From the NCBI RefSeq assembly GCF_964204645.1, contig NC_134029.1, forward strand, positions 3,224,001-3,288,000: a DNA stretch of 64,000 nucleotides, written 5' to 3'. A model generated the notes under the pieces. That model was given only the letters and a program-made list of their open reading frames with translations, was not told where the DNA came from and ran no database searches. The DNA is from Tubulanus polymorphus (Eukaryota > Animalia > Nemertea). This document shows, in pieces, positions 3,001 to 58,650 of the stretch. Position 1 is the stretch's first letter, and the number at the start of each line of letters is the position of its first letter. The position numbers and the translations under genes are program-made.

Positions 3001-5243
3001 ATTCGAGTTGATACTTGACTTCCTTTCATGCTAAAATCTCATCAACACCTCGTAACTGCTGCTAATCATTTTCCGTTTAAATCGTGACTAACTCGAAGAA
3101 TCTAATTCCTGGAATTATACCGCTCCTTAGAGAGAAGTACATTATACAGCCCAAAATTTTTCTAATGCATTTTTTGACATAAAACTGGCCCCAAATTTTT
3201 ATCTTACATTGCTTAGTTCTCATCTTTTTAGCTTGGGCTTCCACGAGGAACCATCAAAGCTTGTGTATTGATTGAAAATATCTTGGCTGCATTTGAAATG
3301 GAAGAAATTCTGTATGAATTGCGTGATCATTCTGCTGGTTTGAACTGCGGAATGTGGGATTATTCAGCTTCAATCATTAATAAATTCGGTTAGTAATTTT
3401 TAACCTGGATTTTGAGAGTTGTTGGCATGAAAATATGAAATATATGTATGTTTCTAAATTATTTCAATACATTAAAAGGCATGTACAATCATCATGTTTA
3501 TATTGCTAGTTTTGCTTGATAAGACTCGGCAGAATTATAGTGGTGTTTTAAAAATGATAACCATAGGGAGCGTTCATAAATTACGTACCTTCATTGGGGG
3601 AGGGGGGGTTACTGAATTTTGGTACAAAGTGGTACATGGGGGAGGGGGTCAGCAAAAAAGGTACGTACTTTGAGGGAGGGGGGTATTAATCAATCTTGGT
3701 ACGTACTTTATGTACCAAACTCAAATGAAAATAGCCGTAGGCCCAACGTACATACTGGCTACACCCACAATACTTTTTTCATTAGTCTAGTTACAAGAAA
3801 TCATTTATAATTGCTATAGAATTACTATTCATTCATTCATGTAATAGAAAGGAGTCGGAAAAATCTTCTTTTCTGTATTTCAGGTCATCGGCGAGAATTT
3901 GTTCTTCCAGATCGTAAAAAGTATGTTTCGATGGATCGTCATTTCCTGAAAAGTTACATGGATCTAGTGATACAAGTTTGTCACAAACACGGTGCTCATG
4001 TTACCGGCGGAATGGCTGCGAAACTTGTGACAGAAAAAGAGGAAAAAAACGCTATAGAAACTGTTTGCAGGTAATTAGTATGAACAATTATCTTTGATCT
4101 TTTTATTTTTATTTAAAAAAAATGTTATTTATCTTGGAAACAGAGTTTTTTTTAAAATCCAATTTGATATGAATTTTGTAGTATTCTTTAAAACAATAAA
4201 GATTTGTATTTTATTTTCTAGGGGTAAATTACTCGAAATCGAAGCTGGTGCTGATGGTTTTATGGTTTATGACCTGAAATTAGTTAAGATTATGCAGAAT
4301 CTTTTCAAGAAAAAGACTTCAGGAATAAATCAACTCAATGTCACTAGAGGTGAAGTCAATATTCGTGCAGATGACTTGTTACAGATGCCCACAGTAAGGA
4401 CCACTTTTTCCACAAAAGAATTTGATTGTGCATCAATTTCTTGCTTGTAAACAAATTTTTTTACGTATTTGATTCCAGGGTGGAGTGACACTGAATGGAC
4501 TCAAGTACAATATTTCAGTCGGGATTTTGTTCATATATTCATGGCTGAAAGGTGAATATATTACATAATAGTAAACTGCTATGATAAGATTGCACAAACC
4601 CTTTCTCTGCTATTTTTACTATCTACATGCGTTTTATAATTTATTTTCAGGAAATGGTCACTTTTATTTCCAAGGGGGTGTTGAAGACTCTGCAACTGCC
4701 GAAATTTCTCGTTCCCAGGTAAAGATAGAATTAATCGCTTGAAGAAATATACATTTTTGAAGTCAACATTTGTAGGGTTTAGGGTTTAAGAACAATAAGT
4801 TGTTTTCGAGCCAAGCGGTGTTATTTTCATAAAGCTTGAAAATAAAGCATAGTGTGACAAAAATGTTTAATTACAATGCTTTTTAGGCCTGATACATTTA
4901 ATTCAGATTTCAGATAAACTATAACGATATATTATACCCAAAACTATTTATCACTCTCTATCAGGTCTGGCAGTGGATCCGTCATAGGGCAAGATTAGAA
5001 GAAAATGGAGAACTGATCACATTTTCAATGGTACAAACTGTCGTTCGGACGACGATTGATGAAATTCTCCGTCGTGAGCAGATTGATAATCAATTACTAA
5101 ACCAAGCTGCAGACACTTTCCTTGAAATCGTAATGAAACACGAATTCCCTGAGTTCATTACGACTTATCTAAATGAAGAGCATCTGTTTCATTCTGTTCA
5201 TCCGAACAGGAACAGTAACTCGAAAGTCACTTCTAAATTATAG
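1..5243 (+). CDS. Malate synthase (malate synthase A-like), peroxisomal; 5' end lies outside the window
   Basis: Phase-consistent GT-AG exons: <1-45, 273-476, 2094-2184, 2264-2340, 2572-2682, 2766-2825, 3232-3388, 3884-4070, 4222-4393, 4479-4551, 4651-4718, 4965-5243 (507 aa visible). Motifs: [111 protein letters not shown]-terminal SKL* (PTS1). Confidence 0.95.
3563..3710. mobile_element. Probable MITE fragment in malate synthase intron, related to the element at 52298-52461
   Basis: Starts TAGGGAGCGTTCATAAATTACGTAC with GGGGAGGGGG tracts and GTACGTAC motifs, the same layout as the TIR element at 52298-52461; right end not clearly intact. Confidence 0.5.
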
Positions 5244-6309: not shown

Positions 6310-9126
6310 TTATGTCTCCTTGACGACAACACCGTCATTATAAGTATTCATATTAGCACCGGTTTGGGTTTTATCATTAACACGCGACGACAAACTGAAA
6401 TTCATATTTTTCTCTGCGCACGGTTCCAACGAAACTGACATAGTATAATTGTGATCGGTATTTGCCACAGACACCGACGATTTCATAGAATAATCGTGAT
6501 CATTGCTAATTCGTTCGTTTACGCTGCTCGAATCGACAACGTTATTGTTCCGACAGAGAGAAACATAGCTTTTATCCAGTCCATCCATAATATTTATCTG
6601 ATGACCCTGTTCCTCGTCAGATGTTTCTGAAAAATGTTCATTATCATCCGTTGTCGTTGTCGCAGGACGATGCCCGGACAATTTTGTAGCAAACGCAATT
6701 TTTCGAGAACTTTTTCGTTTCTTTTTCTGAAAAAGGATAAGAATGATAATAAACAATGATTTAATAGTTGATGAAATATGAATACCCGGTAGCGAAGAAT
6801 AGCGACAAACCTTCGGTTTAGGTCGATCTGGATCATGCAATTTCATGTGAAGTTCTAACTTTTGCTGAAAAGAATGCAAGAATTTCTTTGTAATACGACA
6901 CATCATTTAGGGGCTTGTTGATATTAAACTTCTAGATCTTCCTGCAAGCCATGTGTAGATACGTGAAGGAAGTGTACCAAATGATGGGAGCGCGTATGCT
7001 TGCAGATAAGTTGTTGGTTTTCAATAAGCAATGAACCGTGGCACACCTGGTAATGCAAAAAACATTAACCGGCAAATTTTGTGACGCCGTAGCAACCAAC
7101 AGAGTTTTAGGAGCTGTATATCGACTTCCAGTAAGGCAGTGAACGTGTTTGAAAAAATATTGCTGCAATTGTCGACAGATTTAAAACCACATTTAGGAAG
7201 AAATAATTACACTTCATATCAAGGACTTAACAGCAGAGCTGTTAGGCCGTCCTACCTTTGTGACAAATGTATGTCCACAACCTTTGTGTAGACACGGAAA
7301 GCGTTGACCGTCGTGGTAGGATTTAATATGAGCGACGAGGTTACGTTTATCGAGGTATACTCTCGGACATCCATCACGTGGACAGATGAACACTTGACGA
7401 GCATCGCTGTGACATTGTAAGTGACGTCGCAGTTTCTGTTTATTAGGAAATACTTGACTACACGTGTCACAGGTCAGACCTGAAGAAAACATCAGTTTAC
7501 CATAAGAACATTATTTATTACGAACCCATGAAATGTTTTTAATTCTAATTGTTAACAGCCACACCTCGCCAATTCTATTAAATTGCCTCCCCACGCGGCG
7601 TTATTCTCACCTTGTTTGTGTTTGGTAGCTAAATGCTTTCTAAGAACACTCCATTTCTCGAACACTTCTGAACAGTGGTGATGAGTACATTTATATCCCT
7701 CGTGTATTCGCATATGCAGTTTAAGTTTACTCGGCATCACAAAACTTTTCTCACATCCTTCATGAGTGCACCTTAAAATGATAATCAATAAACTCACAAA
7801 CAAGGGATGAAAGAATTGCATACACTTGTGTAAATTGAATAAGAGGGTCTAGAGAAAATCCCCTTTAACGATGATTGTCAATCTCTGGATAGGAAATTAT
7901 AAATGAAAATGGTGGCATATCATCCAGCTACAGAATGGCCACTTATCTGGAAATCAGGGTATTTTCTCTAAGTCAGGGAATTTCGTAAAGGATAAGTCGG
8001 GGAAATTTGCTGAGATAAAAGTGGCTACCCTGAACCAGTCTGGCCAGGTGTCATTTGTTCGTACTGCATACAGGTATGGTAGATGAACATGGAAATAACA
8101 GGTACTCACTTGTATGGTTTAACACCGGTATGAGTAAATTCATGTCCTCTCAGGTGATGGTGCTTCTTAAAAACTTTGTCGCAATCTTTGCACTGAAAAA
8201 AAGATCAAAATCAATAACAAAACATTCATGGTGAACATTGTGAAAGTGAGATACAATACCAGTACCTTATAGACATGTGTCTCATGGCGGCGTTGTATGT
8301 GTTTGTTTAGGTTGTCTTGTGAAACAAAACTCTGACTGCAGTCATCATGTGGGCACCTAGAAACATGAAAAGTTTCTGCTGATAGTCGAAATCAATGATT
8401 TTTACACAAGGAATCATTTGTTTGTTTGATTACTTACTGTATGATTATTTTGTTTTGTTTATCATCTGGTATGTGAGATTTATCGATATGACGTTGTAGA
8501 TGAGCTGATCTAGTGTATGTACGGTCGCAGTGGTTACACGCATACGGTCTCTGTGTCAGAAAATAGAAAATCATAGATTCTTCAACTGACGAGTATGAAG
8601 ATACAACAGACAGGGGTGTGTCTAAACATGTTGTGTCAATGTCTGTCTAAACATTTTGAAAGGCCAATCGACCCCCTGTTCCGTGATTTTACATGCTTTT
8701 CACAGGGGTCCTTACAGTTCAGGGCAAGTCACCAAAAATGCTCTTACGTCTCAGAATTGTCTTTTTTTGTCTGCAGTGCAGGGAGTATGAAATCCGGAAT
8801 TCCCTGATCTGTAAGAACCCTATTGTTTTGAATCGAGATGAATAGTCGAATACCTGCCCTGCTGGTCATGGTATGGTATGGTGGTGGTGGTGGTGGTGGT
8901 TTCGTTGACGTTAGTTAAGTTAGTTGTTACCTTTTTTTAGCCCATGATGGGCAAATGAGTGATTGTAAATATTTACCTCACCAGTGTGGGTTCTAGTGTG
9001 ATGTTCTAGTCGATCTGGTCTCGAAAACGTTTTACCACAGTTTTCGAAGGAACACAGATACACTGACGGCCTCGTTGATTTAATTTCACGGTTAGTTTTA
9101 CCAGAAACAACGTCCCCGTCAGCCAT
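6310..9126 (-). CDS. GTF3A: Transcription factor IIIA (5S rRNA gene factor), nine C2H2 zinc fingers
   Basis: Exons in transcript order: 9126-8977, 8550-8438, 8356-8266, 8192-8110, 7771-7611, 7479-7256, 6864-6811, 6726-6310 (430 aa). Nine fingers with TFIIIA-typical strings: FKKHHHLRGH, CTHEGCEKSFVMPSKLKLHMRIHEGYKC, KWSVLRKH, CPRDGCPRVY...NLVAHIKSYH, HDPDRPKPK, and the post-finger basic segment KKRKSSRKIAFATKLSGH. Confidence 0.93.
7934..8032. repeat. Short interspersed repeat (TGGCCAC...CAGGGAATTT family)
   Basis: TGGCCACTTATCTGGAAATCAGGG...TCAGGGAATTT...GTGGCTACCCTG; a related copy starts near 38158 (GGTGGCCACTGATCTGGAAA...CAGGGAATTTG). Confidence 0.55.
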
Positions 9127-9471
9127 GTTTGTAGCTCCACATTCTACACATTTCGCGCAGCTCTGAGAAATCGGTTTCGAATCCCGGTTTAATCCGAAGC
9201 TTTCACCCAAAGTTTGAGACTCATATCATAGAATTTGTTATACATTTTATAGAATTAATCCATATTATTTGAAAGATCTCAAATATAGGCATATTACATT
9301 TCTATAAATATGGTTTCGATATATTTCTTGAATTGAATTGAATATCGTTCTAAGGAGTTTCTGAAATATCCATGCTGTTTTCAGCACTAAATTTCAAAAT
9401 GCGAGCTTTTAGATTTAGTATTTTCCCCTGTGTTTAGTTGATTGGTGTTAGCCGATGATGTTATGTTAATC
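9127..9471. promoter_or_regulatory. Bidirectional promoter region shared by GTF3A and the Scm3/HJURP-like gene
   Basis: Divergent start codons at 9126 (-) and 9472 (+) are only ~345 bp apart. Confidence 0.7.
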
Positions 9472-12400
9472 ATGGAGGATAAGCTAGAACGAATGTTTAG
9501 TGGGTTTGCTGATTCGAAGAGTAAATTTATTTACGCTTATGAATCTATCATTGAAAAGGTAATTCTACTAAAAAACTTAAGTCAAGAATAAGAAGATATT
9601 GTTTCAATGTTTGTTTATTATCTTCTCGTCTCATCTAGGCCTAATTAATAATAGCGCGTTCGATTATCTTTTCCTAGTAAGCCTGGATGCGTTCGATTTA
9701 TCCATCACTTGATAGTTTGGGCTGCCCCGGGCAAGTTAAAGTGAGCGACTCCCAGAGCAGGTTACTTTAAACTTCCCTGGGTAAGCCCGAACTATCACGT
9801 GACGGATAAATCAAACGCGTCCGGGCTATCCCTGGGTATACTAAGAGAAGATAATCGAACGCGCTATAAGACAGTCTACCTGGCCTGGCCCTGGTCCTGG
9901 AAGGATCACCGACTCCTTGTCTGATGACTGAGTCTCTCACTCTCAGAGGAGTCTGATGGAATTCTTCCTTAACTCAGATAGACAAAGACATTGTTAAACT
10001 TTTCGGACCTGTTATCGCTTCACTACTGCTTTTAGTATTGTATTGTTCCACAGGCACTTGACATAGACACTATTTTTCTCTTTCCTTTTTTTGGTTCAAT
10101 TATATGGTATAATAACTAAGGACTGCAATTTGACTGGCATGAATTATCAGCTTTATCTCATATTGTCACTTTTTTCTCTGTTTATTTAGTATAATCACGA
10201 GTTTCCAGATTGCGACATCATCGATCCAACAAGCTTGACGATCGTTGAGAATAGGGGTATTTAATTGATTATCATTTCGAGCTTCTTTCCGATTAATGAC
10301 CAAATTGTCATTATATAGCTGAATCATTTTTCTTTCTTTGTGTTTTAGGGCAACTGGCAAAGAGCACATTTAAGCCAGTGAAATTAGGGACATCGATCTT
10401 AGTTAATCCATCCACAAGTAATCTCACTTTTGATCTGAGTAAGTATTTGACGAGGAAAGGGATTAGATTTGAGGAGAGTTACTAAACAGTTTTGATGAAA
10501 TCTTATGATTCTATTGATTAAATTTCAGGTAAACCTGATCATGAAAATGAAAACGATATAACGGTAAATACGACATAAGTTCAATAATGAAATATAAATA
10601 TCCTGGTAATTTTTTTTCACCTAGAAATTAGAAAAGTTACTCAGCAGATCCTTAATCGAACTCATGAAAAAACAGCCTAAAATACTATCATTACCACAAT
10701 ACAAAAGAAAGAAGAGTCCTTAAAGTTTCCTTGAGCTTATTGTTTATTTCAACATTTTGACTATCTTTATTTAAATAGTCACCTTCATTTATACTGATGG
10801 ATGAACTAAAATGACTATTAGGAATGCTTATGCACATACGCTAGTTGAAATGTAAAAAACACTCAAGCTGAAGGAAACATTTTGCTGGACTCATTTTTCT
10901 CTTGTAGTATGGACAGAGACGTGTTTCATCAATATTTTCTTTACATAAAGGTGTCGACGAATATTAGCCATGTGTACAGACGATGGGACACTGTGTTAAA
11001 CAAGGCAGAAATAACTGCTGTTGAAGGTATAATATATTGAGTTGAACTATAAAAAAAATGGGCCCTAGCCAGGGAAATAATTGGGATAGATTTGGAATAG
11101 AACACTAACCGCTGTTTGTGAGTTATCCTAATTATTTCTTAACAATTCAAATTTTCAATAATCTTTTCCCCATTTTCTTTATGTAGATTACAAACCATTC
11201 ATTCATTGAAATTAACTCTCTTTAAAGAATTTCCCTTATTATTTTTTAAGAATTATTTTTGGATCACGAAATGTTGGATGATGAAGGACTCGATTGTGAA
11301 ACGATTACTTCTACGTCATCTGTAGATTACGATACCGAAGAGGAAGTGACCCCTAGTGAGGTGAGACTGAAATCGGGATCCCTACGACTCCTTGATTCCT
11401 TAAAAACTCATTCAAAGTAGAAAATGCTTTTAAAAGTGCTTGAAACTCCTTTAATTTGAACAAAATGTCTATGACTCCTTTAAAACTCTTTCAATTTTGA
11501 GAAATAGGCAGTTAGAAATTTGTATTTACTTTTTAGTTTGCAGTTATTTAGTAGACATTTGCATCAACCGAATTAGAAGGTTATCAAATTAGAACCGAGT
11601 TTAATAATGAAAAGGATACAAATTTGCTAACAAAACCACCGAATCAATTAACGGTACCAAATTTAGGGGGAGTCTTCTGGATTGAGATATGAGAGTAATG
11701 CAGATACTTCCTCGAAATTTGAAATTTTCTCCCACATCTATGAAACTCAGCCATGCTTTTCTCATTTTTATTGGATATCCAGGAAAAACTTCTCGAAGAG
11801 GAATCGTCGTTAGAGGAAATCAATTCGTCTAACGTTGATCGAGATGAAAATGCGATTTCACCGTTGAAACGAGAATTATTTCCAGATGCGGACTCGCGCA
11901 CGCGGGAGTGTAGATCTGAAGCGCGATTGGCGAATGAAACGTATCGTGTCATTAAAAAACCATCCCATGACAGCGGATTGTCGTCGTTAAAGACGAGCAT
12001 TTCATTGAGCTCACTGGCGGAACTCGAACACAACGCCGCGCACGAGAAACGCAACCCACAAACAAACTCAAGTCATCGGCGTCGAGTGAATCTAATTACT
12101 TTAAAGAGAAAATCTCCATCTTCGGGACGCGATAGCCCTGAAAATTCTGATCGTTTGATAGTGAATGAAAACACTGGTCGAGTAGTGACGTTAGGGAATT
12201 TTAACGCGACTGTCAGCAGCGTTTGTGATAAAATACACGACGAAACAGACGGTGAAACACTGTTAGAAAATAACTACCAATCTAAAACTCTGAGTACCTG
12301 TCATCAGTATGATGATGATTACAGCGATGATGATGAAATAACGTTGTTAAAGGATGATGAAGTGACATGCATTAAAGAAGATTTCCGAAGTCCCGACCAA

Positions 12401-14566
12401 CTGAAGTTATATCGAAAATACGAAAACAATAAGAAAGTTTCGCAATGGCTCGATAAGGTTGCGCATTCATGTTTTAGTCAGAACGAATCAGATGCGTTTC
12501 GCATGAATCGGGATGAATCTCAGCATTATCGAGAGACTCGTGACGTGTTGGCGATATCTCCAGATGTTTGGAGGGGAAAGGTACTACTGTCTCGGAGTGA
12601 TCCAACTCAGAAGAACCAAGTTACCGGTATGACTCCAAGTATTCGGTTTAGCAGCGGTATGGATTTTAGGAGAGACCCGGTTGATTCACCAAATAGCGAG
12701 AAAGTAACGCCTCGAAGGGACATGATTATTGGATCTCCGATAACTGGAGTTGTATCTCTGAGGGATGATCTCGAATCTCCAACTATCAAAATGAGTAACC
12801 TGTGCTTAGACTCTCCTGCGCGAAGTAAACATTCGTCAGTTTATCAAAACTCAGTTCAAAATGACGCTCCGATAGATTTGACAAAACGTAATTGCGATAC
12901 GCAGATGATATCATACGGTCAGTGCGGAGCGATTGATTTAACTACAAAACCGTCGATGAATATTGAACTGATTTCTGGTCAACGCGAAACACAACAACTC
13001 GAGGCTTTAGATTTAGTTTGTAAACGGATTCAATGTAAAGATTTTAACAAAGTTCAGGATTCGGTAACTCGGTTCGGACATAATGATATCGTTTCTGGCA
13101 ATCTGAGGGAATCGACTAAAGTCGTATATCCTCCGCGTAAAACTCGGGACTATAACATTGCTCGTCGAAGTACTTCATCTTCGAACGAGCATTCAGTCAA
13201 TCGGTCTCCTGGATGTAAGGAATCAGATAAAGTATTTATGGTCCAGTCTCCAAAGACTGCATTGTCTGCTCATGCGCAATCTCCAAAGAGCTATAGTAGT
13301 AATTATGTGGAGGATTGTTCTCTCAAATTTTCTCATGAAAAGAAAATCCCTGAAGTGACGTCTTCTGTTCAGCAATCTCCTCAAACTGCGAGGAATGACA
13401 AAATTCCTCCTGAAGGTGATAAAACTGAAGTACGCATACCCGTAAAATCTCAGCCATCTAAAGATGTTTTCCGATGCCCTGAAGTGCCACGACCTCGGAT
13501 AAAACCATCAGTACCACTAGTGCATGAAATACCTCATTGCAAACTTACTGAATCTGATCGATGTCATGAAACATGCCGGATAGATTTGAAACCGATGAAC
13601 CTAGCACTTCAGCCTTATGTGAGGCTGACTGATCTAGCTGCGCAGCCTCATGTGAGCCCTACCGATACGCTACCAGTTACTCAGCCTCAAGTGAAACCAG
13701 CACTTGTCAATCAGGTGAGACATTGTGTCCAAGTCCATTGTCAAAAGGAGTCTCCGGTGAGACCTGCTGAGCCAGTTATTCAGCGTCAACTGAGATCTAC
13801 TGTCCCAGTTCGGTGCCAGAAAGAGGCTCAAGTTAAACCTGCTGAACCTATCTCTCAGCCTCATGCAAGATTGGCTGATGCTGAATCAGTTGCTGAGCCT
13901 CAAACGAGATCTGCTGAACCAGTCACTACTTCAGTGAAATCAACATCGCAAGTACGGCGTCTACGGCATCAAAAAGAACCTCGCGCAAGACTTTTTAATT
14001 GTATTCAGCCTTCTCCAGCACGACCTACTGAATTAGTGGAACCTTCGTTTAAAACTCTTGTTTATCCATCGCCATTGGTCACTAGTACTCCGCTGGCTAA
14101 ACTTAAAGATAAACTAGAAGTGTCGGATGATATATCCGAAATCACTCCATGTTACCGTCGGCCTGTTGGTGCGAAGCTGGCGATTAGTGAAAAAAAGTCT
14201 GATCCGAAGTATTTGAAAACTGTTTTACCGATACGCGAAGATGAGTTCAAAGTCCTGTGTGATTCTAGTTCTGATGATGTTAGGAAAGCGAATCCGGTTA
14301 AAAGAAAGTTATCTCATGGAGATTTTGCGGTTTCTAAAAATAAGTGTCGTAAACGCGAATCTGATTTTACTGAAAATAATCAAGACTCATCGTCGCTGCC
14401 ACGGAAAGAATATTTGGGCAAGCGGAAGGCTGCGAGGTCGAGAAAACAAAAAACTTTTGAAAAGGAAAATAGCTCGAATAATTCAAATAGAAATTTGTCT
14501 TCTTGCACTGGTCAAGTTTATTGTAAAAAATTGTTCTGTTTTCGATGTTCTGAGAATCAGCCTTAA
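9472..14566 (+). CDS. Scm3/HJURP-like CENP-A chaperone candidate (~1082 aa): N-terminal Scm3-like domain, long disordered S/P-rich body, C-terminal Cys4 motif
   Basis: Phase-consistent exons 9472-9558, 10190-10256, 10349-10438, 10529-10563, 10951-11026, 11251-11360, 11783-14566. Spliced N-terminus MEDKLERMFSGFADSKSKFIYAYESIIEKYNHEFPDCDIIDPTSLTIVENRGQL fits the remembered Scm3/HJURP pattern (..ESIIEKY....D.ID..T..IV...G.L). C-terminus CTGQVYCKKLFCFRC. Gene structure is well supported; the family call rests on motif recall. Confidence 0.75.
9651..9867. mobile_element. Foldback/palindromic MITE in intron 1 of the Scm3-like gene
   Basis: Terminal ATAGCGCGTTCGATTATCTT / AAGATAATCGAACGCGCTAT are perfect reverse complements. 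Inner arms (GATTTATCCATCACTTGATAGTT / AACTATCACGTGACGGATAAATC) also pair, giving a ~217-nt hairpin. Confidence 0.85.
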
Positions 14567-17500
14567 AACCGTAAATGATACTGTTTACTTCAAACCGCTG
14601 TCATTTATCAAAAACTCAAATTGGAAACTAAACTTTCCTGCGTGAAGGGAAGATTTGTCAGTTTAATTGGTCAAAGATGGTTTTCAGATAGAAAAAAACA
14701 GTATTTCGATATGATTCATCATTCGATCAAAACATTCGATTTTAGACTCAATTTCGGACTACAGAGTAAACTTTTTCACAGTGCATGTAACCTTTACCCC
14801 ATTTGACACTTTATTGATACCTTTGCTATTTTTGGGACCACAATCAGTTGCATAACTGTAGCTCACGACATGTTCAATGATTGTGTTTGTATCTATATGT
14901 TCACCAGGGGGTGTTGATTATTGAAATTGATAGTTCAGCATCTTAAACCACTTTTCACCAAGTTAGTAACCTGTCTGTGGTTAGACTGGATATTTTCACA
15001 AACCACAAAAAGGTATAAGGTATAAGCCCAACCAATTAATGAAAATGATGAAGTAACTAACTACATTGTGTTCCCAAGTGGGCATGGTGTCCCTGAACCC
15101 CTAGTTTAATGATTAGATCCTTGGCTTCATTTAAATTACATGAATGATATAATTTTAAAACTCTTATCAGTGGTAATTATGAGCGTTTACGTTATTTTTA
15201 CTGTTATGTACTGGTACATAAATATAAGATTGTATCTTTGTTGTAGCCTTCAGTTATTTATGTAAATGTCTTTAAAAAATGTACTTAGCAATAATTCCTC
15301 GTTTGGTTTTTAATTTTAAGGAGTGTATTTCTATGAATGTATGGATGGAGATGACCCATTGCAATTTTCATTTTCCCCAGTACGTAAGAAAAAGGAGAAT
15401 ATCTTTTTTTTCAATTACATTAAGTCTTGGAGGTAACCACCCGCAAGGAACCCAGTGCCCCTATTTCAACCGTACGGTGTCGCCATCTAAATAGTGAAGA
15501 GGAAGGAGTCTCGTGCCAATGACGTCATTTCATATATTTACATAGGCGGCGAACCGGCCATTTCTAGGATTATTCAATGCGCTCAAAATATAGTTCGTAC
15601 TTTATTACAAATTTTCAATATTTTTCCTCGCCGACAAAACACTGATATTACACCAATATATTGATTATACACTCTGAAATATAAAACAATTAGAATAAAG
15701 TAAATTCGGCTTTTGATAGAATCGTTTTAGACGCGCGAACGAATACAGTTCATCTAAAATTAGCTGTAGATTCCGGAGAGATTCATGTTTTCCATCCAAA
15801 AATAGCTCAATAGGACAAACACTGCTCTACTGGTCAGTAAAAATAGACATAATCTCTCCTCATATTTGTTGTCGTTGTTTATAATGTGTGTTGTAGTCGT
15901 CGTATTCTAATCGAACGCGCTTGTTTCGTATTTGATCGTTGATTGACATACACGGACTGGCCGAGTTTGAGGAGTGACTGAATCTGGTTGTCATGATTGT
16001 CAGTCAGAGTCAGGCCTGTCTCCGCTTCAACCGGCCTCGGTGCTTGTGATTGCGTTAAATTGACATGAATGAATGAGAATGCGCCATCGTGTACTATATG
16101 CTCAGTGGCGCTTGTCAATTTGAACTCATCAAGTGTCTATAAATAACACGGTAACCGGTGGCGGTGTAATGACGGAGACACTGTTGAAAAGCCAGCTGGG
16201 TGGGCAACAGGCCACAACTCGAAATAGCATCCGTTAGGGGATTCCCCAATTTTGATATATCAATTTTGTTTTGGGATTTATTGTATAAGATGAATACTTA
16301 CAGTTCCTCTGTCGATAAAATGGCTACTCAAGTCAACTACCAAAAAGACATGTAGGCCCCTATAATAAATTGAACTGTGGAAGTGTTTTAAGTTGAAACC
16401 ACGGATCAGGGTATTCCCTGATATTGACATTGCATTTTCTCTTCTAAAATTAAAAACCTTTGGGTCTATAAAATGTGCCCTGTTATATGAATTCCAATAG
16501 GACCTAATCTGTTTTAGATAGGCCTAGCCCTAATTAACCCTCTACTAGTAGCTAAGATTACAAATTTACCGCCCTACTAAAATGAAGGCCTAGGCACTTT
16601 TTCACTTTCAGCCTAACCCCAGTATCTTTTCTAGACAATTGTAATTGATCTTTTGTGCCAGAGCTGTGTTTAAGAAAGAGTTTTATCCAATATATTGAAA
16701 CCACCTGAAGTCTCAACTATAAGTTAGCCTACTCTATGCCTACTGTATAGGTCCGGAATGAAATAATTTTCAAGCTGATGTTGATTTGTTTCAGACGCTC
16801 ATCGATAAATAAATCGCCTTCCTGAACATCTTACTCGATCGTTTATAATACTCCTCGAGAATTTGTGCTGCCGACTACAGATTCTTGGTCACAGTTTATT
16901 TATCAGGTAGGCTTCATTTAAGAAAAAACCATCAAGGACCCAGTTCCACAGTTTACTGCATGAATTAGACTTGGAGTGGAAATATTGAAATATATTAGCT
17001 TTAACAGAACCGTCAAATCAAACCGAGAACTAAAGAACTGAGGCCAGTTCTTCAAATTACACTTAAATGACTGCTTTTTTCAGGTAATTCTCGTTACTGA
17101 AATTTTTTATGTCGAGGTTTTCTTATCTTGGACCTAAACTTAAGCAAAAACCCATCGCAAATTAATGGATCGCGATGATAATGCTGAACTGACCTTCTTA
17201 AATGTCTAGTCGTACCACCCTTGGTCCTCCCCTCCCCCTCCCTCCCCAATAAATGCTTCTGATGCATTTTCAATTAGAAAGGATAATCCACTCCACAAGT
17301 ACTTAATGGGTTTAAAAAGTTTTCCTTCTATCTTGTTTTCATCCCTGCTTCAGTACATCTCGAAAGTATAAATTATTCAGACACGATACAGTTCGAGCCA
17401 CAGTTTACTATAGTATCTACATTTTATTTAGGTATTATTTGATACGCGCAGTGAAAACTCTGCCAAATATATAATAATATTGCTATGTCGACGCGGTGAC

Positions 17501-20930: not shown

Positions 20931-21698
20931 GTTGTTTGTTGGGAATTTTAATTTTTAAAGTTGATTTTCAATCAAATTTGAACTGAATTTTTTAGGCTTC
21001 CGAACCTGAATACTATCAAACAAGTCATCGAATAGCTATACGATGATTAATTTTCTCACTCGATGTATGGTATAGATTTCAGTGTAAATTCTTTTTATAA
21101 ATTGGAAAAGTTGATTCAAATTTAACGAAATGTAGAAGACATTGAAGGTAATCGAGTAACCAGTACTAGGGACCAGGAAGTCCAGAAAAGTGTTTGAAAC
21201 CTTTGGCTACAGGCATGGCCACTCTCAGAATACAGCTGAATGTTTTCCAAATACCCTGAACCCATCGCAAATCACTTCACACCTATATTGTAATGGTGAT
21301 GGAGTACATATTTCCCCCCTTTTCTAGAATGCTGGATCTGTCCTTAATTTTGTGTTCAGTTCATCCCTGGATGGAGATCATCATGTGAATGAACGATGGC
21401 TTCAAGGCTATCAGTGACGTGTAATGAATAGTTGCGATGTTCAAGTTCTAAAATATATTCTGGATAAATTGTTGTTATTTTACGTAAGCAATGATGTTCA
21501 AAAATAATAATCATACCGATCCATCATGTGATCTAAAAACAGGCGGTCTCCTCTATCCTTTCTTCATCCCAACAACAATTACTTTGTGGAATACTTTTCC
21601 TATGTCTGTTTCGTAGCCAAAGACAGATATCCCTGTCACTTTCAAAAACTTAGTAAACCTACCTAACGTATATTATATCTCTTTCATTATTATTATTT

Positions 21699-22084
21699 TG
21701 TTGGGTGGATGTTCTGTTGGACCAGTATTCTGTTGGGTGGATGTTCTGTTGGCCCAGTATTCTGTTGGGTGGATTGTCTTGTTGGGCCACTGTTCTGTTG
21801 GGTGGATATTCTGTTGGGTGGATATTCTGTTGGGCCACTGTTCGGTTGGATGGATATTCTGTTGGGTGGATGTTCTGTTGGGTGGATGTTCTGTTGGGTA
21901 GATGTTCTGTTGGGTGGATATTCTGTTGGGTGGATGTTCTGTTGGGTGGATATTCTGTTGGGTGGATGTTCTGTTGGGTGGATGTTCTGTTGGGTGGATG
22001 TTCTGTTGGGTGGATGTTCTGTTGGGTGGATGTTCTGTTGGGTGGATGTTCTGTTGGGTGGATGTTCTGTTGGGTGTATATTCT
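21699..22084. repeat. 16-bp minisatellite (GTTCTGTTGGGTGGAT)n, about 24 units
   Basis: Read directly; variants CCAGTATT/CCACT at the 5' end. Explains the six repetitive ORFs in the track. Confidence 0.97.
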
Positions 22085-22324
22085 GGCATTGTTCAGTTGA
22101 TGAATTTTTTTCTCTGACACAAACTGAAGTTGATAGTTGATTAAATGATCTGCGTCAGTCAGGTATAAAGTGTCTCCTCAGCAGCACGCAGGCGCACGCA
22201 CGCATGCTGCTCTGATCACTATCGATCCACACTCTATTTACGTCACAAATCCCATGTTATAAATAACTGCAGCCTATTTTCACCCGACGAATGAAGCTTG
22301 GGGGTTTCCATACGTTCCCGGTAC

Positions 22325-34422: not shown

Positions 34423-43994
<9,572 letters not shown>

Positions 43995-56315: not shown

Positions 56316-57084
56316 GAAGAGCTAGCTAGCAAAATTAATGAATGGGCCTACAAGGAAAGCAGAACACTTGGAGCTGGTGACAGCAATATATTCAACATTT
56401 TTCATAAATAACATTGTAATTCGGGGCTTGGGCAGTCCCCTAAGCCTCTAGTTATCTTGATAATAAATGAAATATCCAAAATTTTTTGTTCAGATCATGA
56501 TTTTTGTGAAACAGTTTTTGGATTTATTCAGAGGGCAACAAAGGCATGTGCTTCATTCATACAGGATCCAATCTAGTCAATACAGGACAAACAACATGAC
56601 TTTTTTGACACGGCATCCTGGAAAAAACTACTAAATGAGGATCAAACAATTAAAAAGACAGGAGATTCCTTCAATTCTCCGAACATTACATGCAAAATCT
56701 TACTTTTTATGAAATCATGTGAAGCTAAATGATGTAATTACAAATTTTATTGCAGTTCACAAAAGTGACCAATTATGAGAAACAAGGTACATGTATAATT
56801 TAGTCTAGTACATGCATCCAGATTGCACATGTATTTCAGAAGCCACACATGAATTTACACGTGTTTTTAAAATACACGTCCTAAGTTACACGTGTATTTC
56901 AAGATACACATCTTCAGTACACGTGTAATTCAAAATACATGTCCAAACTACACGTGTATTTTAGAAATACACGTGTTTTACACATGTACTTCAAAATACA
57001 CGTCAAAAGTACACGTGTAATTTCATATTACACGTGTATTACACGTGTATTTAGCTAAATACACGTGTACCATTTTCATAAGGG

Positions 57085-58650
57085 TATGGTATAGTGGTGC
57101 GATGTCGATATTTGGTAGTGTATGTGGAATTAGTGGTGTGATGTCGATGTTTGCAAGTGTATGTGGAATTAGTAGTGTGATGTCGATGTTTGGTAGTGTA
57201 TATGGTATAGTGGTGCGATGTCGATATTTGGTAGTGTATGTGGAATTAGTGGTGTGATGTCGATGTTTGGTAGTGTATGTGGTATAGTGGTGTGATGTCG
57301 ATGTTTGGTAGTGTATATGGTATAGTGGTATGCTGTCGATATTTGGTAGTGTATGTGGAATTAGTGGTGTGATGTCGATATTTGGTAGTGTATGTGGAAT
57401 AAGTGGTGTGATGTCGATGTTTGGTAGTGTATATGGTATAGTGGTATGCTGTCGATATTTGGTAGTGTATGTGGAATTAGTGGTATGATGTCGATATTTG
57501 GTAGTGTATGTGGAACTATTGGTGTGATGTCGATGTTTGGTAGTGTATATGGTATAGTGATGTGATGTCGATATTTGGTAGTGTATGTGGAATTAGTGGT
57601 GTGATGTCGATGTTTGCAAGTGTATGTGGAATTAGTGGTATGTTTTTGATGTTTGGTACTGTTTGTGGAATGTGGTGTGATGTCGATGTTTGGTACTGTA
57701 TGTGGTATACAGTTGTATGATATGTCGATGTTTGGTAGTGTATATGGTATAGTGATGTGATGTCGATATTTGGTATTGTATGTGGAATGTGGTGTGATGT
57801 CGATGTTTGGTAGTGTATGTAGAATTAGTGGTGTGATGTCGATGTTTGGTAGTGTATGTGATATAGTGGTGTGATGTCGATATTTGGTATTGTATGTGGA
57901 ATTAGTGGTGTGATGTCGATGTTTGCAAGTGTATGTGGAATTAGTGGTATGTTTTTGATGTTTGGTACTGTTTGTGGAATGTGGTGTGATGTCGATGTTT
58001 GGTAGTGTATGTGGTATACAGTTGTATGATATGTCGATGTTTGGTAGTGTATATGGTATAGTGATGTGATGTCAATATTTGGTAGTGTATGTGGAATGTG
58101 GTGTGATGTCGATGTTTGGTAGTGTATGTGGAATGTGGTGTGATGTCGATGTTTGGTACTGTATGTGGAATGTGGTGTGATGTCGATGTTTGGTAGTGTA
58201 TGTGGTATACAGTTGTATGATATGTCGATGTTTGGTAGTGTATGTGGTATAGTGGTATGTTTTCGATATTTGGTAGTGTATGCGGTAAACAGTTGTATGA
58301 TATGGCGATGTTTGGTAGTGTATATGGTATAGTGGTATGATGTCGATATTTGGTAGTGTATATGGAATAGTGGTGTGATGTCGATGTTTGGTAGTGTATG
58401 TGTTATACAGTTGTATGATATGTCGATGTTTGGTAGTGTATATGGTATAGTGGTATGATGTCGATATTTGGTAGTGTATGTGTTATACAGTTGTATGATA
58501 TGTCGATGTTTGGTAGTGTATATGGTATAGTGGTATGATGTCGATGTTTGGTAGTGTATGTGGAATTAGTGGTGTGATGTCGATGTTTGGTAGTGTATAT
58601 GGTATAGTGGTATGATGTCGATATTTGGTAGTGTATGTGGTATTGTGGTG
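57085..58650. repeat. ~38-40-bp satellite array, about 40 units
   Basis: Consensus GATGTCGATGTTTGGTAGTGTATGTGGAATTAGTGGTGT with alternating variants (GGAATTAG, GGTATAG, GGTATACAGTTG). Confidence 0.97.

Follow-up and report, generated by a model that had tools for sequence, protein, structure and literature searches.

Gene content of the window and the seven-exon model

The window, by which we mean the whole 64,000-nucleotide stretch analyzed here, comes from Tubulanus polymorphus, a palaeonemertean ribbon worm. On its forward strand lies a predicted gene of seven exons that begins at 9472 and ends at 14566. Exon 1 (9472..9558, aa 1-29) starts with an ATG, ends at a GT donor and encodes the scm3 helix up to the K of a KY dipeptide. 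Exon 2 (10190..10256, aa 30-51) continues with the Y of KY, a linker, an acidic/hydrophobic strand and a second strand, and exon 3 (10349..10438) holds the G-x-L end of the scm3 domain plus its flank. Introns 1 and 2 (631 and 92 nt) are GT-AG introns with pyrimidine tracts that splice in frame. A sequence-only reading of the same DNA had proposed these three small exons, and its coordinates, GT-AG boundaries, frame and spliced peptide all proved correct.

That reading had also tied the three exons, through three more, to a 937-aa ORF. We predict linking exons at 10529..10563 (exon 4), 10951..11026 (exon 5) and 11251..11360 (exon 6, which encodes an acidic stretch and has the donor GTGAGA), all on the forward strand, followed by a last exon at 11783..14566 (exon 7, 927 aa, ending at the stop codon). 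The proposed link stands as far as GT-AG boundaries and frame are concerned, while exons 4 to 7 are joined by prediction only. The 937-aa ORF corresponds to 11753-14566 when counted from its own ATG, and its spliced portion begins at 11783. In the complete model each of the six introns is GT-AG, and the 3,249-nt coding sequence, with its sole stop at the end, encodes 1,082 aa. A second in-frame ATG at 9463 is a possible alternative start that would add three residues; the ATG at 9472 has the better start context (A at -3, G at +4).

Exon 7 is polar in composition (S 12%, R/K 16%, P 7%), is probably disordered, and matched no Pfam family. The linker carries 22 S/T-P and five full CDK-type sites. 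Beyond the scm3 domain the remainder of the protein is polar and poorly conserved, as judged from its composition and from its lack of a Pfam family or homolog. When the 927-aa exon was searched against proteins of 509-1,623 aa clustered at 90%, and against 1.84 billion representative proteins, neither search returned a match, even from the same species.

Upstream and on the reverse strand, 6310-9126 contains a multi-exon C2H2 zinc-finger gene (Pfam TFIIIA_zf-C2H2, 39.7 bits, over cutoff) with TFIIIA as its best PDB match; from these matches, the gene is likely TFIIIA. The predicted ATGs of the TFIIIA-like and Scm3-like genes face each other head to head across a 345-bp interval (9127..9471) that is likely a shared promoter. 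Elsewhere on the forward strand we found the last exon of an animal malate synthase gene at 4965-5240 (Pfam MS_C, E 3e-8) and MEF2 exons at 41260-43994, of which 43710-43991 is 100% identical to a T. polymorphus MEF2A-like sequence. Malate synthase acts in the glyoxylate cycle and is patchily distributed among animals. Repeats are also present: nested inverted repeats with 29-nt and 61-nt arms at 9651-9867 in intron 1, resembling a MITE-like multicopy element; very high-copy repeats at 11379-11730 (intron 6) and 14920-15110 (3' of the stop), where summed contig depth reaches thousands to tens of thousands; and, at 21650-22180 and 57000-58600, strongly strand-skewed simple tandem repeats that give rise to spurious long ORFs.

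Allelic variants were taken from contigs of two sequencing runs, neither recorded as RNA; the contigs cover introns and are without spliced joints. Between 9300 and 11400, 40 of 41 substitutions were listed, from which we dropped 11 in the repeat (9650-9870) and one upstream of the ATG. Two of the 28 substitutions kept fell in exons 1 to 6 (465 bp), both synonymous, and 26 fell in introns (1,203 bp; binomial p=0.007); all eight listed indels lay outside exons. For exon 7, the changes listed (40 of 108) included 12 in the exon, six silent and six missense, with no stop or indel among them. Contig depth over the exons was similar to that over unique flanks. This pattern of variation is in keeping with a real gene whose N-terminus is constrained and whose linker changes fast.

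The product of the Scm3-like gene was not found among public proteins, though T. polymorphus MEF2 is present there. The gene may be unannotated, or its product may be missing from the protein collection. The same absence would be expected of a pseudogene or silent paralog rather than a working chaperone, but we regard that explanation as scarcely credible: the reading frame is uninterrupted over 3.2 kb, the small exons show only silent changes, the listed variants include no indel or stop within exons, and the gene stands head to head with a TFIIIA-like gene.

The N-terminal Scm3 domain

Eight unspliced pieces of the window were searched for Pfam families with E values of up to 10. Exon 2 alone matched Scm3 (PF10384) as its sole family, covering profile positions 23-46 of 53 at 13.2 bits (E 0.074), which is under the PF10384 cutoff of 24.3. 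Exon 1 alone had no Pfam match at E up to 10, exon 6 had one weak, unrelated match, and exon 2 had zero matches among PDB sequences.

We also built two profiles that did not contain the window sequence. The first comprised 11 Scm3-type loci from a motif scan requiring KY, and the five of these loci that were tested all scored 74-86 bits on PF10384. The second comprised 88 further PF10384 proteins, retrieved by a query that included the exons. With the 11-sequence profile, exons 1, 2 and 3 together scored 17.0 bits, and exons 1 and 2 alone scored 6.1 and -1.3. With the 88-sequence profile the spliced peptide scored 19.6-24.1 bits versus 8.4 and 0.4 for either exon alone, the addition of exon 3 accounting for the rise from 19.6 to 24.1. 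Residues 1-60 reached 25.3 bits with this profile, where the best of 5,000 shuffles reached 13.1 and the reversed sequence 1.7. The whole window, both strands included, offers 12,525 two-exon GT/AG joins free of stops, and among these junction 9558/10190 ranked first with both profiles (16.5 bits versus 11.6 for the runner-up with 11 sequences, 22.1 versus 11.0 with 88), neither of which is wholly blind, as KY was demanded in the motif scan of one and the exons were part of the retrieval query of the other. Because this junction was the best of 12,525, we conclude that the joining of exons 1 and 2 is not due to chance.

The details of the spliced peptide agree with the family. Exon 1 aligned with fungal helices without gaps, and in one profile alignment exon 2 directly abutted exon 1. 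K29 closes exon 1 and Y30 opens exon 2, placing the KY dipeptide across the junction, and both the D38-I-I-D41 strand and G52-x-L54 are present. The domain is N-terminal, as in all 88 retrieved proteins (start within 120 aa). AF2 modeled exon 1 as one continuous helix (residues 2-31 of a 32-aa peptide, pLDDT 89.8), although short peptides are often modeled as helices. The peptide departs from the consensus at two positions, where Pro42 replaces the Leu of D-x-D-L and Asn50 replaces the Asp of D-x-G-x-L; Hollis et al. 2026 (PMC13322267) note that both are relaxed in animals. Inspected by eye, the peptide is a close fit to the scm3 alignments published for invertebrates and choanoflagellates. 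The earlier assignment of an Scm3 domain is thus supported by the Pfam match of exon 2, by our two profiles and, by eye, by the published alignments.

A four-cysteine motif at the C-terminus

The large ORF had been described as otherwise featureless, but it carries a four-cysteine motif, C-x5-C-x3-F-C-F-x-C (aa 1063-1077; 14504..14548, forward strand), five residues before the stop. A similar motif, C-x6-C-x3-F-C-[FLMW]-x-C, occurs in 44 of the 88 Scm3 proteins, all named ones being fungal, and some of the 44 proteins that do not have it may be partial sequences. It lies 14 residues or fewer from the C-terminus in 43 of the 44 proteins having it. The first cysteine spacer is 5 in T. polymorphus versus 6 in 44 of 44 comparison proteins.

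A loose pattern, its width chosen after both sides had been seen, had a single match across the six frames of the window (93,396 residues). In 200,000 shuffles of exon 7 the strict pattern never appeared, and the loose one appeared 26 times anywhere and never in the last 30 residues. With hhalign, the last 30 residues were the best of 31 windows (probability 93.9, E 1.7e-7). A MAFFT alignment of the last 40 aa with 15 whole proteins, chosen for having the motif, brought the four Cys and the Phe into register. HMMER alone gave a weak score (10.8 bits, i-E 0.046, with a runner-up at 9.7 among 2,836 six-frame pieces). No Pfam family covers the motif, whether in the window protein or in the fungal Scm3 group, and the ESM Atlas returned no usable match for the C-terminus of the window protein or for that of a fungal protein. 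In a metal-free AF2 model the C-terminus formed a short hairpin with a local pLDDT of about 80; a fold search with the 40-aa C-terminal model returned nothing at Z 2 or more, the model being too small to inform.

Because the cysteine motif lies at the opposite end from the Scm3 exons, as in fungal Scm3, we place the last exon with them. The occurrence of two motifs at the ends expected from fungal Scm3 is the best evidence for including exon 7 in the gene; the shared C-terminal motif supports orthology with Scm3. It is improbable, in our judgment, that exons 1 to 6, read through the exon 6 donor, instead encode a short Scm3 protein of about 176 aa and that the 927-aa ORF is a separate gene. 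The frame of exon 6 is open as far as 11417, its join to exon 7 rests on prediction, and short Scm3 orthologs of 212-358 aa appear in Table S1 of PMC13322267. However, the exon 6 donor (AG/GTGAGA) is good and in phase with the acceptor at 11783, read-through past exon 6 runs into the high-copy repeat from about 11379, and the large ORF terminates in a cysteine motif typical of Scm3 C-termini.

Both motifs are short, and a look-alike has to be considered: the KY stretch could be chance or a SANT/Myb-like resemblance in an unrelated disordered nuclear protein, and the cysteine motif could be convergent, for example an IBR/RING-type fragment. Motifs related to C-x3-F-C-F-x-C occur in IBR-type fingers of real proteomes, and Scm3 profiles weakly matched the SANT domains of MTA1/3 and CoREST via F-E-x3-KY. 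Those SANT matches, however, span 15-19 profile positions, whereas the spliced peptide spans about 44 with both strands included. Pfam found no SANT/Myb family for exons 1 to 3 (E up to 10) and no IBR/RING family for the C-terminus, and the two motifs lie at opposite ends, each where it is expected. We consider a look-alike very unlikely and retain the seven-exon Scm3-like gene as our model.

Proposed identity and comparison with known relatives

We hold with high confidence that the predicted seven-exon gene is the T. polymorphus ortholog of Scm3/HJURP, whose product would bind a CENP-A/H4 dimer with its N-terminal scm3 domain and would deliver the dimer to centromeres. The gene is a new member of the known Scm3/HJURP family, and by analogy with that family we infer that its product binds and loads CENP-A. 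By extension from the family (PMC13322267), the exon 1 helix would pack against helix 2 of CENP-A in antiparallel orientation, with KY touching a CENP-A glutamate and the exon 2 strand reading CENP-A loop 1, such that CENP-A/H4 would be chosen over H3 for deposition. The polar linker of approximately 1,000 aa would be disordered and bear recruitment and cell-cycle timing sites. A zinc-binding, cysteine-rich domain of fission-yeast Scm3 was reportedly described by Folco et al. in 2024, and we take it to be the same motif as the C-terminal Cys4 here. If the analogy with that domain is right, the terminal Cys4 would bind one zinc and aid centromere targeting.

A cysteine or zinc motif in animal HJURP was not found in the portions of the literature searched. 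The available portions of PMC6677171, PMC11185503, PMC13314379 and PMC13079627 contained nothing on a C-terminal motif, and the text of PMC13322267, the supplementary PDF of which was outside the search, has "zinc" zero times and "cysteine" only within a reference title. A fungal-type Cys4 tail in an animal HJURP may be previously unreported. We tentatively suggest, at a little under even chances, that the ancestral animal-fungal Scm3 was a two-module protein that bound CENP-A through its N-terminal domain and used a C-terminal Cys4 zinc motif for targeting; both modules would be kept here, the "fungal" domain surviving in spiralian HJURPs and being lost in vertebrates. This ancestry, if true, would anchor orthology of the whole protein at a second site and would suggest an animal centromere-targeting route unlike the vertebrate one. 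A Cys4 motif common to animal and fungal Scm3, if true, would itself extend homology beyond the scm3 domain, into sequence for which the text of PMC13322267 reports very little homology among orthologs. The question of whether a zinc motif formerly served animal HJURPs in centromere targeting would then become testable. With this locus, Nemertea joins the animals with a recognizable CENP-A chaperone, and a gene model is supplied for a product that was not found among public proteins.

The earlier implication that invertebrate orthologues are rare was overstated: in a 2026 survey by Hollis et al. (PMC13322267), scm3 orthologs are described from the majority of metazoan lineages, among them annelid, mollusc, brachiopod, bryozoan and flatworm. 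Nemertean names do not appear in the text or readable supplements of that paper, where many rows give accessions only (the supplementary PDF lay outside the search). Its named orthologs include Capitella ELT94853, Lingula XP_013387541, Biomphalaria XP_013081743 and Monosiga XP_001747460, and its spiralian Scm3/HJURP orthologs are 435-1,823 aa long. In the published alignments, the invertebrate and choanoflagellate orthologs share with the window protein an N-terminal helix, KY, seven residues, a D-[IV]-[IV]-D strand, G-x-L and a long polar remainder; the Monosiga and Dimorphilus rows further share KY-[NS]-HEF with it (PMC13322267).

A profile combining exons 1 and 2 with two fungal domains retrieved 88 proteins, all PF10384 and none named animal. 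Many fungal PF10384 proteins (P0011, P0018, P0048-P0073) are named Myb-like or TERF2-interacting in their source. The large fungal Scm3 proteins (PF10384; P0010, P0073, P0093) have in common with the T. polymorphus protein an N-terminal Scm3 domain, a long linker and C-x-n-C-x3-F-C-F-x-C near the C-terminus, and differ from it in the first cysteine spacer (6 versus 5). Myb or C2H2 domains occur in some fungal Scm3 proteins, including C2H2 fingers in Candida Scm3 (PMC8015856), and are absent from the T. polymorphus protein.

Pfam detected no vertebrate HMD or repeat domains in the window pieces, and we know of no terminal Cys4 motif in human HJURP. The fungal Scm3 profile matched yeast Scm3 (PDB 2L5A and 2YFV), and the profile including the window exons matched human HJURP (3R45) only at E 1.1. 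The helix-KY-strand layout of the window protein is shared with both human HJURP (3R45) and yeast Scm3 (2YFV, 2L5A).
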